DNA of 20,000 bases from an uncultured virus (IMG/VR IMGVR_UViG_3300035424_000304) (Duplodnaviria > Heunggongvirae > Uroviricota > Caudoviricetes), in IMG/VR virus record IMGVR_UViG_3300035424_000304. One strand, written 5' to 3'. Below, piece by piece: positions 8,881 through 14,883 of this stretch. The position numbers and the translations under genes are program-made. Each line of letters starts with the position of its first letter. The first letter of the stretch is position 1. Under the pieces are notes generated by a model, which saw only the letters and a program-made list of their open reading frames with translations, searched no databases and was not told the origin of the DNA.

Positions 8881-10935
<2,055 letters not shown>

Positions 10936-11729: not shown

Positions 11730-11814
11730 GCGGGAGTGGCGGAATTGGCAGACGCACCGGATTTAAGTTCCGGCGCCATATGGTGTGAGGGTTCAAATCT
11801 CTTCTCCCGCACCA
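11730..11814 (+). tRNA. tRNA-Leu(TAA)
   Basis: Acceptor GCGGGAG/CTCCCGC-A-CCA, anticodon arm CCGGA-TTTAAGT-TCCGG, long variable arm, T loop TTCAAAT. Confidence 0.93.
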
Positions 11815-11846
11815 GCAGCTCTCGTATTCGATCTAAAAAATCATTT

Positions 11847-11937
11847 GCCAGTGTATCGTAGCGGAAACGAGGGTCAGAAATCCAGGATATCCAGTGGTAG
11901 ACCTGCGGTGCAAGTTCGACTCTTGCCACTGGCACCA
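11847..11937 (+). tRNA. Atypical tRNA-like gene with a 24-nt anticodon loop (anticodon undetermined)
   Basis: Perfect acceptor GCCAGTG/CACTGGC-A-CCA, D arm TCGT-AGCGGAA-ACGA and T arm GCAAG-TTCGACT-CTTGC. The stem GGGTC/GACCT encloses AGAAATCCAGGATATCCAGTGGTA. Confidence 0.75.
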
Positions 11938-11940
11938 AAT

Positions 11941-12016
11941 GCTCGTGTAACTCAGTTGGTAGAGTAGCGGCCTTTTAAGCCGTAAGTCGAGGGTTCGAAC
12001 CCCTCCATGGGCACCA
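11941..12016 (+). tRNA. tRNA-Lys(TTT)
   Basis: 76 nt. Acceptor GCTCGTG/CATGGGC-A-CCA, anticodon arm GCGGC-CTTTTAA-GCCGT, T arm GAGGG-TTCGAAC-CCCTC. Confidence 0.95.
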
Positions 12017-12020
12017 TTAT

Positions 12021-12108
12021 GGAGAGGTGTCCGAGCGGTCGATGGTGTCGGTCTTGAAAACCGACGAGCTGTAAGGCTCCGGGGGTTCGAATCCCTCCCT
12101 CTTCGCCA
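12021..12108 (+). tRNA. tRNA-Ser(TGA)
   Basis: Acceptor GGAGAGG/CCTCTTC-G-CCA, anticodon arm TCGGT-CTTGAAA-ACCGA, long variable arm GAGC..GCTC, G73 discriminator. Confidence 0.95.
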
Positions 12109-12109
12109 T

Positions 12110-12400
12110 TGTCTCCCCACGCTCTCGCTCAACCAAATAATCGGGACATTGCGGACATCATCATCCGCTGTTTCTGGAAGGCCCGCCCGGTGGCGTGGGT
12201 GGGGGCGTGGGAGACATACGCTGCATCCATTTGCAGGCTGGCATTTTTCGTAAGCATACGCTGCAGAGTGTGCGACCGGAATTTCCGTCTGTCGATTGGA
12301 TGCCAAAAGAGTACCCTATTTATACGGCGGGCCTGGCCCATGTGAAAAGCAAGCCAGGTGCATTTATGCAGGAGTGAAGTATAGTAGCGTAGTCCGTCGT
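12110..12400 (+). ncRNA. Candidate structured non-coding RNA(s), three domains, family unknown
   Basis: A 21-bp stem (12110-12131/12196-12216) with G-U pairs, a multi-stem junction at 12239-12305 and a multi-stem junction at 12324-12400. No ORF with an RBS is present. It begins immediately after the tRNA-Ser CCA. Confidence 0.6.
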
Positions 12401-12428
12401 TCTCTAAAAATATAAAGGAGATAATCAG

Positions 12429-12536
12429 ATGTTTTCAATCACACTCAATGGTATGGTCTATTCGTTCGAAGATGACCGTCTGATGGAAATCATGGATATG
12501 CTGGATGCTGCGGCAGACAAAGTCCGGGAAGAGTAA
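12429..12536 (+). CDS. Small acidic protein, 35 aa (not in the ORF track)
   Basis: RBS AAAGGAG, then MFSITLNGMVYSFEDDRLMEIMDMLDAAADKVREE. Confidence 0.6.
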   Translation: MFSITLNGMVYSFEDDRLMEIMDMLDAAADKVREE

Positions 12537-12548
12537 AACGAAGCTGTG

Positions 12549-12580
12549 GGGGCAGCGTAACCCGCTGCCCCTCCCCCTTT
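12549..12580 (+). terminator. GC-rich hairpin (weak terminator or processing stem) before the CAT tRNA
   Basis: GGGGCAGCG-TAACC-CGCTGCCCC followed by a pyrimidine run lacking a good U tract. Confidence 0.4.
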
Positions 12581-12590
12581 CCCAGAATCT

Positions 12591-12666
12591 GCTCCCTTAG
12601 CTCAGTTGGTAGAGCGGCTGCCTCATAAGCGGTTGGTCCTGGGTTCGATTCCCCGAGGGAGTACCA
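12591..12666 (+). tRNA. tRNA with CAT anticodon (elongator Met or Ile2)
   Basis: 76 nt. Acceptor GCTCCCT/AGGGAGT-A-CCA, anticodon arm GCTGC-CTCATAA-GCGGT. It lacks initiator features and has C4-G69 and C5-G68 as in Ile2. Confidence 0.9.
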
Positions 12667-13183: not shown

Positions 13184-13945
13184 ATGAAGAAAAGGATTAT
13201 TATCACATCTGGTCCCACAAACGAGCAAATCGATGCAGTGATGAAAATCACGAACATGTCGACCGGAGCTCTGGGAAGCACGATAGCGGAGACCTTTCTG
13301 CGGGAGCGGAGTAAAAACATCGAAAAAGTCTACTACCTCTCCCCCAAACTCGCCCTGAAACCCCGCCTGACTTCTCCTCTGTTGGATTACATCACAGTCG
13401 AATCCACGCAGGATTTGCTGGACGAACTGACGCACCTTCTGACCACAGAGCGCATCGATGCTGTTGTGCATTCCGCCGCCGTGGGAGATTACAAGGCCAG
13501 CTACACTATCCGGGCGGAAGACCTCATTGATGAAATCATCCGGAAACAGGCGGAGGCCGGGGGTGTACTGGGGTACGACGAGCTTATGGAAATCTTCGAC
13601 AGTCCCGAGGCCGTGCAGAATGACAGTACAAAAATCTCCTCTTATGAGCCCCACCTGATGACAATGCTAACCTTGACCCCAAAGGTTATCAGCAGTATCA
13701 AGAAGCTCTCCCCCAGTACTACCCTGGTGGGTTTTAAACTTCTGGAGGGCATAGCGAGGGACGAACTTCTTAACGTCGCCTCCAGGCTACGTGAGAAGAA
13801 CCAGGCAGATTACATCATTGCTAATGACCTTTCCAAAATTGGCAACGGAAAACACTGGGCGATGGTTGTGGGAGCGTCTGGGGTCGAGACGGAGTGTGAG
13901 ACAAAGCAGGAAATTGCCGATGCAATCCTGGCCCGGATTTTCTGA
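13184..13945 (+). CDS. coaB: Phosphopantothenate-cysteine ligase-like protein (stand-alone CoaB/DFP C-terminal domain), 253 aa
   Basis: IIITSGPTNEQIDAVMKITNMSTGALG, VVHSAAVGDY, KISS, TPKVI, LVGFKL and IIANDL. RBS GGAGG. Confidence 0.9.
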   Translation: MKKRIIITSGPTNEQIDAVMKITNMSTGALGSTIAETFLRERSKNIEKVYYLSPKLALKPRLTSPLLDYITVESTQDLLDELTHLLTTERIDAVVHSAAVGDYKASYTIRAEDLIDEIIRKQAEAGGVLGYDELMEIFDSPEAVQNDSTKISSYEPHLMTMLTLTPKVISSIKKLSPSTTLVGFKLLEGIARDELLNVASRLREKNQADYIIANDLSKIGNGKHWAMVVGASGVETECETKQEIADAILARIF

Positions 13946-13986
13946 CAAAAAAATATGGCTTCCCGCATCGTATGGGAGCCATATAT

Positions 13987-14072
13987 GCCTTGGTAGCTCA
14001 GTAGGTAGAGCGCCGTAGGGAGTTGATCGCCCCTTCGGTATGTCGCCGGTTCGAGTCCGGCCCAGGGCACAA
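13987..14072 (+). tRNA. Atypical tRNA-like gene with an extended anticodon arm (+10 nt); ends ACAA rather than ACCA
   Basis: Acceptor GCCTTGG/CCAGGGC-A, D arm GCTC-AGTAGGTA-GAGC and T arm GCCGG-TTCGAGT-CCGGC. The anticodon arm is GCCGTAGGG-AGTTGATCGC-CCCTTCGGT. Confidence 0.75.
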
Positions 14073-14170
14073 TAAGCCCCGTATGACAATGGTCTTGGTC
14101 CATCTCACCAGTTGGCGAGGGCGGCTTGCAACGCAGCGGGGCATTAAAAAATATGAAAGGAGATGCCGCT

Positions 14171-14461
14171 ATGACAATCATGGACCTAGTCAACAAAAAG
14201 GAGCAGATTGACCGCATGTCAAAGCGTATTAGAGACACAATCGCAAAAACAGACAAAGGGTTCGAATCAATTAACAAATTCGAAAAATCTACCGATGAAG
14301 ACGGGAAAAAGGCCATCAACCTTGCCCGTATTTCGACGAATGAACTCATCATGGATCTGAATGAATGCCAGAAACAGCTTCGGGAATATTCCCTACTGCT
14401 TGATTCAGTCTTGCGGCAAACAAATATCACATGGCCTCCAAAATGCACTGCCCTGGAATGA
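14171..14461 (+). CDS. Hypothetical helical protein, 96 aa
   Basis: RBS GAAAGGAG precedes ATG 14171. Its stop overlaps the next start (ATGA). Confidence 0.7.
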   Translation: MTIMDLVNKKEQIDRMSKRIRDTIAKTDKGFESINKFEKSTDEDGKKAINLARISTNELIMDLNECQKQLREYSLLLDSVLRQTNITWPPKCTALE

Positions 14462-14883
14462 CCCCACCCCTCCCCCGCTCTTCTCTCCTGCCAGCCTATA
14501 TTGCTGAGGATAAGTTGTTCTTCTCCACCCGCCACCTTCAAAACCCTGCGCTTCTCATCCAACCCTCTCTTGATTTGCTGGTGGCGGTTGGTGAAACACC
14601 AGAAATGAGAAAAGCGAAAGCTCGGTTTGACGCTGTCGCTACCCCAGAAGATTCCCAGACAAATCCCCTCATTGTGGTTCCCCTTGGCCTGGAAACCCCA
14701 TATGGGCTAACACTGGAGCAAGCCGAGTATACAATTAACCGCATGAGTTCTGACCTAGATTCCCATTTCGTAACCAGATTCTTTGAACACTTATGTCTGG
14801 ATGCAGACATCCGCTTTTGGATCAACGAAAGGATGACGCAAGAGCCTAAATGGACATACACGGTTGAGCAATTATTGGGGTGA
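14458..14883 (+). CDS. Hypothetical protein, 141 aa
   Basis: ATGA translational coupling with the upstream ORF, followed by a terminator. Confidence 0.65.
   Translation: MTPPLPRSSLLPAYIAEDKLFFSTRHLQNPALLIQPSLDLLVAVGETPEMRKAKARFDAVATPEDSQTNPLIVVPLGLETPYGLTLEQAEYTINRMSSDLDSHFVTRFFEHLCLDADIRFWINERMTQEPKWTYTVEQLLG

Follow-up and report, generated by a model that had tools for sequence, protein, structure and literature searches.

We describe a tRNA-shaped gene at positions 13987..14069, on the + strand, of a 20,000-nucleotide (nt) stretch of the uncultured virus record IMGVR_UViG_3300035424_000304, the whole of which is referred to here as the window. The gene combines the body of a transfer RNA (tRNA) with a long hairpin at the position of the anticodon arm, and the tip of this hairpin, GAGUUGAUCGCC, recurs on tRNA-shaped genes of distant origin, the stems changing on both sides of their pairs and the loop UUGAUCG staying the same. 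We consider it probable that the gene encodes a stable, non-decoding, tRNA-framed RNA of a small, apparently uncatalogued family residing in the tRNA arrays of phages and mobile elements. That the RNA is maintained and does not decode seems highly probable to us; that its loop is recognised by a protein or RNA of the host, with the role of a decoy, a sponge or a regulator, is a possibility that we put forward tentatively, and any one named partner is unlikely to be the right one.

A tRNA body with an extended arm

The RNA measures 83 nt to the discriminator and was delimited by ARAGORN, Rfam and folding. Sequence reading and the fold agree on an acceptor stem of seven pairs, one of them U.G, between GCCTTGG (13987..13993) and CCAGGGC (14062..14068), on a canonical D arm, GCTC-AGTAGGTA-GAGC (13996..14011), with A14, G18 and G19, and on a canonical T arm, GCCGG-TTCGAGT-CCGGC (14045..14061); all of these features lie on the + strand, and U8 and the T-loop UUCGA complete the tRNA hallmarks. 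The variable loop, ATGTC (14040..14044), was read from the sequence; its C14044 could pair with G15 as in a normal tRNA core. The discriminator is A14069, which is followed by CAA (14070..14072) where CCA is expected, so that the 3' end reads ACAA. The minimum free energy fold is a cloverleaf of -38.6 kcal/mol (z = -3.5), and none of 200 shuffled sequences folded as well. The departure from a tRNA lies in the 28-nt arm at 14012..14039, the span from D stem to variable loop that takes 17-18 nt in a normal tRNA. Counted outward from the D stem, it consists of a G.U pair, CCG/CGG, a U.U mismatch in fifth place, AGGG/CCCU, the bulged A14021, the pair G14022-C14030 and the 7-nt loop UUGAUCG (14023..14029), in which UGAUCG is self-complementary if U.G pairs are counted. 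A canonical anticodon arm has a five-pair stem, a 7-nt loop, U33, a purine at 37 and a standard distance to the elbow; here there are nine pairs, a bulge and one further pair, and C stands at 37. The structure given in the earlier note on this DNA, with its D, T and acceptor arms, lengthened arm and ACAA end, proved correct in every detail on reading the sequence.

Standard tools see the body and stumble over the arm. ARAGORN labels 13987..14069 as tRNA-??? with a four-base 'anticodon', written tRNA-?(Ser|Ile)(tgat), and the Rfam tRNA model (RF00005) scores 48.5 bits, against a gathering threshold of 29, by skipping 20 nt of the arm. Neither program reported a transfer-messenger RNA for the gene, the YrlA-type Y RNA model (RF02553) stayed below its threshold (12.9 bits against a gathering value of 69, E = 4.7), and no Pfam family was found for the overlapping open reading frames (ORFs) 13810-14562(-), 13787-14089(-), 13791-14018(+) and 14023-14211(+).

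A constant loop on covarying stalks

The recurrent tip was found in 16 distinct sequences, mostly within tRNA arrays, from gut Clostridia contigs, a Lachnospiraceae prophage, a myxobacterial metagenome-assembled genome (MAG), and cyanophage-like and T4-like viral contigs. We define the family by the tip G-A(bulge)-G-UUGAUCG-C(or A)-C on a covarying stem, placed at the anticodon-arm position of a body with acceptor and T arm. The window gene carries this tip as the 12-mer GAGTTGATCGCC (14020..14031, its single occurrence in the window), at the anticodon-arm position and in a mobile element with a tRNA array. One member, L158 (= L147; L-numbers denote loci found in sequence collections, namely viral contigs, metagenome contigs and MAGs), was found by searching the loop together with generic tRNA motifs. 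It is an 84-nt gene on a contig of an Angelakisella MAG, third in the array Leu-Lys-(this gene)-Met...Ser, and its arm repeats the nine pairs, the bulged A and the G-C pair and ends in the identical loop. Relative to the window copy, two pairs of the arm are changed on both sides, U.U has become U-A and G.U has become A-U, and the acceptor and T stems differ by compensating changes.

Further members came from scans for the 12-mer followed by a T loop. In the search that gave L158, tRNA-shaped genes with the tip made up 1 of 10 loci, and in the later scans 9 of 20, 3 of 21 and 1 of 20. The further members lie on cyanophage-like viral contigs (L191, L203), on a T4-like contig between the clamp and clamp-loader genes (L193/L202/L207), on other viral contigs (L194, L198, L196, L199), in a prophage of a Wujia MAG (L211), in an Archangium MAG (L218) and, two in one array, in a rabbit-gut Clostridia MAG (L339a, L339b). 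The other matches to the pattern were mostly coding DNA read as Glu-Leu-Ile-Ala; L343, a maf gene read in this way, was rejected as a member. A sequence that nearly repeats the L158 hairpin but is shorter by one base, GGAGAGTTGATCGCTCTATTC, was seen at L153 1495-1517 (+), which is G001:C1 ~9372-9394, on the same contig as L158; it lies inside the 3' end of an ORF with a CxxCxxCC domain, on the strand opposite the RNA gene, and could be either chance Glu-Leu-Ile-Ala coding or a second hairpin.

The bodies range from a canonical class I tRNA (window, L158, L339a) to forms with a miniature D arm, an 8-pair acceptor and a 4-pair T stem (L191/L203/L230). The stalk below the constant tip varies from about 5-6 pairs in L211, which has nearly normal tRNA length and an encoded CCA, to about 11 in L191. 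Acceptor pairing is complete (7/7) in 10 of the 13 members tested and 6/7 in the other three. L339a is built like the window copy: base 26 is absent, the arm opens with a G.U pair and counts nine pairs, and the U.U mismatch occupies the corresponding position. Four of its arm pairs differ on both sides from those of the window copy. The earlier note had taken the junction geometry, that is the missing base 26 and the G.U first pair, for a trait of the class; it is kept in L339a and found neither in L158 nor in the wider family. At the eleven non-canonical loci, ARAGORN marks two as tRNA-??? and Rfam matches none at the motif, while ARAGORN calls L158 and L339a tRNA-Leu(gag).

The pairing of the stems is supported by two alignments. 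With four full-length sequences, 97.1% of the cells are paired against 81.2% after shuffling, none of 500 shuffles being as high, and controls slid out of register pair at 33-48%. Double-sided changes affect 11 of the 26 pairs, including five of the ten arm pairs and five of the seven acceptor pairs; the D arm is invariant. With 14 hairpins aligned outward from the loop, 74.6% of the cells are paired against 58.7% (again 0/500 as high; slid controls 41-55%), 31 cells are double changes and eight of the ten arm pairs vary on both sides; the alignment contains many G.U pairs, which fits pairing of RNA on this strand. The earlier note had proposed a selected RNA rather than random decay and had named beforehand a lack of covariation in the extra pairs as the result that would speak against it; the extra pairs covary in both alignments and the homologues keep the extended arm, which bears the proposal out.

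The loop UUGAUCG is identical in all 16 distinct sequences (L230/L232 included), an invariance that is partly by construction, since most members were found by requiring the 12-mer, and that two checks approach independently. When orthologues of L191/L203, with L230/L232 among them, were retrieved by their acceptor and T-arm sequence and without use of the loop, UUGAUCG was kept at 4/4 loci (three distinct sequences), the stems changing and the closing C turning to A. In a scan with the four central bases left free, hairpin-tip cases occurred only with GATC, at 9 of 72 loci, and the other 63 were ordinary tRNAs or coding DNA.

Compensating changes in the arm, T and acceptor stems make a relic or decay unlikely. 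We therefore find it hardly credible that the gene is a dead tRNA, or that the hairpin is a functionless selfish element inserting into anticodon arms, even though tRNA bodies of different kinds carry one and the same hairpin, a further copy is found within a protein-coding gene and conservation of the gene in close relatives does not exceed that of the flanks. The double-sided changes that keep the acceptor, T and arm stems paired among the window copy, L158 and L339a place the whole fold under selection; the hairpin almost invariably takes the place of the anticodon arm on a tRNA-like body, with one or two copies per record, and most of the other 12-mer matches are simply codons in genes.

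A working decoder is also very improbable. It would recognise AUC/AUU by means of a GAU anticodon or, following the ARAGORN notation, of a four-base one (UGAU), and the 7-nt loop does have U at 33 and GAU at 34-36, on an intact tRNA core with discriminator A; in L211 the length is near normal and CCA is encoded. However, the arm is five pairs too long here and runs from about 5 to 11 pairs across the family, and an arm this long cannot keep the anticodon-to-acceptor distance needed by the ribosome. C37, G38, the bulged A and the flanking bases are invariant over different bodies, unlike any isoacceptor family, and five arrays with the RNA already have a tRNA-Ile(GAU). The view of the earlier note that the RNA is non-ribosomal thus stands as likely, by inference from the length of the arm and its variation in relatives, C37, the invariant non-tRNA loop and the resident tRNA-Ile(GAU).

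Other tRNA-like genes with long arms were seen in the same collections. In the L339 array that holds two UUGAUCG members, three genes of 114-119 nt (392-505, 1088-1204 and 1209-1327, all on the - strand; Rfam tRNA 40-51 bits) each carry a 45-50-nt insert at the anticodon position, with a common module of a 5-7-pair hairpin followed by Y-N-ACAGCAA, and a repeated leader, ggcggcccggaaagacgggcaa, lies upstream of at least two genes of this array. The viral contigs L064/L114 and L049/L089 contain tRNA-shaped genes whose long arms bear conserved tips of their own: one kind presents the loop UCGCU on stems of 6-9 pairs that covary, the other an inner hairpin capped by GACG. The viral contigs also include numerous tRNA-Tyr genes of giant viruses, interrupted by ordinary introns. 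The cyanophage-like contigs match the abiF RNA motif RF03085 at L191 1383-1419 (-) and L203 3818-3854 (-), with 53.8 and 49.3 bits against a gathering threshold of 37.

Origin of the body and genomic setting

The body of the window copy resembles a tRNA for phenylalanine. An 88-nt RNA-library contig matches 13984..14015 with one difference (31/32) and then continues as GACTGAAAATCCGTATG, an ordinary Phe anticodon loop, and the best ordinary matches to R1, a model built on the RNA, are Phe, Thr and Asn tRNAs. By sequence comparison, the gene resembles a Phe-type tRNA that has lost some 11 nt of its distal stem and loop, together with the anticodon, and has received a 20-nt hairpin module in their place. 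When R1 was run on 151 genomes of the family to which G001 belongs, an 84-nt match was found only in G001 (98.2 bits) among the matches listed, the others being 73-nt tRNAs with at most 60.6 bits; 2041 weaker matches rank below these. Searched for by exact pattern, the source of the body gave only a Bacteroidales chromosomal tRNA-Phe with a different acceptor stem, which was not accepted. Viral contigs (L009, L010, L051, L056, L071, L083, L121-L130) hold Phe-like tRNA genes with the same D and T arms, whose anticodon arm, GCCCA-GGAAUA-UGGGU, has a 6-nt loop with GAA and no U33 and is followed by a 12-nt variable region.

These comparisons bear on whether the gene could be a tRNA with a very short intron of an unfamiliar kind, an explanation to which we give scarcely any credence. 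It has a precedent in the 'enigmatic introns' of Lak megaphage tRNAs, conserved inserts whose processing is unknown (PMC6784885). Three more tRNA-like genes in L339 have inserts at the same place, and ARAGORN, with introns allowed, proposes Ala(cgc) with a 7-nt intron. That intron, however, falls at 32/33 and presupposes a stem that tolerates a U.U mismatch; on reading the 18 nt inside the proximal five-pair stem, no removal of prefix and suffix yields a U33 loop. The insert comprises only about 10-11 nt, compared with some 200 nt or more for group I introns, and relative to the Phe-type tRNA it has replaced the anticodon itself. The arm forms a plain helix interrupted by one U.U and one bulged A, with no bulge-helix-bulge motif and no match to an Rfam intron family. 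Contigs of four metatranscriptome runs span the gene only in unspliced form and without joints, which is weak evidence, as contigs drop rare forms and small RNAs; such coverage proves neither that the gene is transcribed nor that splicing is absent.

The window looks like part of a large phage or plasmid-like element. It encodes GyrB, an anaerobic ribonucleotide reductase (NrdD), a serine recombinase, a DNA methylase, an NAD-dependent ligase (LigA), DUF3268 and DUF3848/3849, and it is present in many mouse-gut metagenome runs. Its tRNA array comprises Leu-UAA, Lys-UUU, Ser-UGA and Met-CAU at 11730-12666, plus the gene under study. Between tRNA-Ser and tRNA-Met lies a 482-nt spacer (12109-12590) that is 100% identical in L131 and 96.5% in L132; it includes a 35-codon ORF (12430-12537) and matches no RNA family. 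A CoaB-like gene (13184-13945) ends 41 nt upstream of the RNA gene, and a hairpin at 13953..13984 (+), possibly a processing or terminator element, ends 2 nt before the 5' end of the RNA. A search of the + strand just upstream of the RNA gene showed no promoter-like site; with the hairpin abutting the 5' end, this suggests that the RNA is excised from a longer transcript.

With the CoaB-like neighbour as query, ten metagenome loci were recovered. Four are close relatives that keep the RNA, unchanged in L140 and with C14046 turned to T and a U.G pair retained in L131, L132 and L137; the contig of a fifth, L139, ends within the match. The remaining five are AT-rich, 55-60% identical and without a tRNA next to the gene, and are read as chromosomal CoaB. 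The CoaB-like protein had no relative in the viral contigs. The CoaB-like (DFP) gene itself is 82-89% identical to its counterparts in L131/L132, in the midst of sequence that is otherwise 96-100% identical on both sides, a mosaic pattern that suggests a swap by recombination. Among cultured phages and plasmids, only generic tRNA similarity was found. Matches in Lactococcus phages were rejected as relatives, being a minihelix of T arm and acceptor and not the hairpin. This minihelix, GGGAAG...CAGGTTCGATTCCTG..CTTCCC, occurs in the temperate phages bIL309 (L325 ~1190-1250) and BK5-T (L326 ~1195-1245), in unannotated DNA of the lysogeny switch just upstream of orf6 (bIL309) or of the Cro repressor gene (BK5-T).

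A second odd gene, flanked by tRNA-Leu and tRNA-Lys, stands at 11847..11937 (+). Its acceptor of seven pairs is perfect, and it also has a T arm, a small D arm and an encoded CCA, which among the six tRNA-shaped genes of the array (four ordinary tRNAs and these two) is missing only at 13987..14069. Its long arm ends in a 10-nt loop, GGAUAUCCAG, with the palindrome GGAUAUCC; an rRNA (ribosomal RNA) target for the 10-nt loop was looked for and dropped, the only runs found being explained by G.U-tolerant chance. The G-U pair after the D stem and the 5-nt variable loop, which the earlier note had reported in both genes, are there in the sequence. Its further step, to make 11847-11937 a second member of the same class, is not supported: the loop differs, homology does not back the link and the fold is no better than that of shuffled sequences (z = -1.2). 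Neither ARAGORN nor Rfam found this gene, it had no relative in the viral contigs, and in its one diverged copy, in L132, five changes include two stem-breaking C.A mismatches and break the palindrome. The two genes share a design idea, while common ancestry is not supported by homology.

Possible readers of the loop and likeness to known systems

We hypothesize that the tRNA body acts as a natural 'tRNA scaffold' that provides processing and stability. By analogy with tRNAs, RNase P and RNase Z would release the RNA from a longer transcript, CCA would be added, and the tRNA body would shield the product from decay. The hairpin would then present the loop as the working part, to be read sequence-specifically by a trans-acting partner, which may be a host factor handling anticodon-like loops or a host RNA; the setting is likely a phage-host contest over translation. 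Elements associated with Firmicutes MAGs, with a Myxococcota MAG and with cyanophage-like contigs all carry the identical loop, and no common linked protein accompanies it: translated comparison (tblastx) of the window with L158 matched tRNAs only, the DUF3848/3849 protein was not found on the contigs carrying L158, L339 or L211, and gene contexts differ from one member to another. The partner is therefore probably universal in bacteria. Judged on its sequence, with a U-turn signature and GAU at 34-36, the loop could be addressed to a host protein or nuclease for anticodon-like loops, a candidate that we weighed; UUGAUCG as such mimics no natural anticodon loop.

One host RNA deserves separate mention. 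The invariant GAGUUGAUC, a Shine-Dalgarno-like 9-mer, can pair with the single-stranded 3' tail of 16S rRNA, which is conserved universally, GAUCACCUC (the anti-Shine-Dalgarno region; the pairing would fall within that sequence and beside it), so that the RNA might dock on the 30S subunit and alter initiation. Within the 16S and 23S rRNA of two genomes, no site other than this tail reaches 8 of 9 Watson-Crick matches with the 9-mer, the rest having at most 7, and the predicted duplex amounts to -8.0 kcal/mol for the invariant part (GGAGG, -8.7), -13.4 for the window copy and -8.0 to -14.0 over 14 members. The pairing would explain the invariant bulged A, both flanking G and the sameness of the loop across phyla. 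Nevertheless, we regard this ribosome-directed mimicry as quite unlikely. The idea arose post hoc, an equally good fit to the tail is reached by 1.6% of random 9-mers, U14023 faces C1535 in an invariant mismatch where G would pair, and the GAG of the 9-mer is already engaged in pairs of the hairpin. Full extension of the pairing over the next four bases is seen in just 3 of the 14 aligned hairpins, and the variable length of the arm speaks against a fixed ribosomal geometry. A likeness of the arm to helix 45 of E. coli 16S rRNA, was set aside, since the corresponding stretch of 16S is different in the likely host group.

The loop could instead bind itself, the UGAUCG loops kissing loop to loop in a dimer or with other RNAs that bear the same hairpin, which we consider unlikely. 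The six bases do self-pair (U.G, G-C, A-U, U-A, C-G, G.U), the GAUC core being worth -4.8 kcal/mol as a plain duplex; the neighbour at 11847-11937 exposes a palindrome in its loop, and one hairpin copy in messenger RNA sense lies in the same contig as L158. Against this, all nine loop positions are invariant, the non-palindromic ones included, and the scan with free central bases revealed no alternative palindromes in the same frame. By our estimate, a four-base palindrome occurs by chance in about one 7-nt loop in four, and the additional copies in five phage records are 9-mers that form no hairpin and are put down to chance.

Our preferred reading, a tRNA-framed RNA whose loop is read in trans, has to face several observations that weigh against it. 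The family is small, with its 16 distinct sequences drawn from three very large collections, and the invariance of the 12-mer is in part built in, as said above. L196, L199 and L198 pair at 6/7 acceptor positions and give no clean cloverleaf fold, and the window copy lacks an encoded CCA. Close relatives show no signal of selection: the gene is 98.8% identical and the intergenic flanks 97.6-99%, and selection is undetectable among them because the flanks are equally conserved. The RNA-library contigs that cover the gene may derive from DNA or long transcripts. No complementary (antisense) target was found in the window, and in five phage records there were no second copies beyond chance, the extra 9-mers being without hairpins.

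If it holds, the reading gives one small RNA of phage tRNA clusters, of the T4 RNAC/RNAD sort, a sharp and testable definition made of frame, covarying stalk and fixed loop. A loop that is invariant across distant hosts suggests a universal host target, and the partner should thus be findable by pull-down. The genes also have a practical side: standard tools mislabel or miss them, and phage tRNA counts as well as calls of 'suppressor' or 'frameshift' tRNAs may be contaminated. In the improbable event that the pairing with the 16S tail is real, mobile elements across phyla would be using one RNA design to occupy or retune the initiation site of the host.

The family is apparently uncatalogued and would be new among tRNA-framed phage RNAs, its nearest published kinds being T4 RNAC/RNAD and the Lak introns. 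The partial literature covered, taken without supplements, contained no description of a UUGAUCG loop or of phage tRNA-like genes with extended anticodon stems. Other phage RNAs offer parallels of mechanism. The C4 RNA of phages P1/P7 and the CI RNA of P4 are released by RNase P from tRNA-like precursors and act via short exposed loops. They act on complementary sites in the same phage, whereas no such site was found in the present window. T4 RNAC and RNAD are tRNA-like at their ends, are processed together with tRNAs and measure about 120-140 nt. Also called species 1 and 2, they are small RNAs among the tRNA genes whose roles are unknown (PMC3014915); the likeness to them is one of kind only, as the GAGUUGAUCGCC tip is defined only for the present family. 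In the Lak megaphages (Devoto et al. 2019, PMC6784885), the sequence-conserved inserts leave a predicted anticodon and tRNA type, while the present gene has no recoverable anticodon loop and its tip recurs on different bodies. Certain phage tRNAs reportedly evade the tRNA nucleases of the host through changes in their anticodon loops (PMC10264068, PMC11464382, PMC11555353). They are likewise array genes with a departing anticodon region, set in a context of defence and counter-defence, but they are working tRNAs of normal size. A canonical bacterial tRNA of Phe type (RF00005) shares acceptor, D and T arms and core with the gene, which differs by an arm of 28 nt instead of 17, the lack of a Phe anticodon and C at 37. 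The closest parallel in design is the engineered 'tRNA scaffold' of Ponchon and Dardel, in which the acceptor, T and D arms are kept, the anticodon stem-loop is exchanged for a cargo hairpin and the chimera is processed and protected by cellular enzymes (PMC3753655). That scaffold is man-made, whereas 13987-14069 is natural, its cargo is a short conserved loop and its processing is inferred from the tRNA frame; the comparison suggests that nature uses the very trick that biotechnologists devised for RNA expression.

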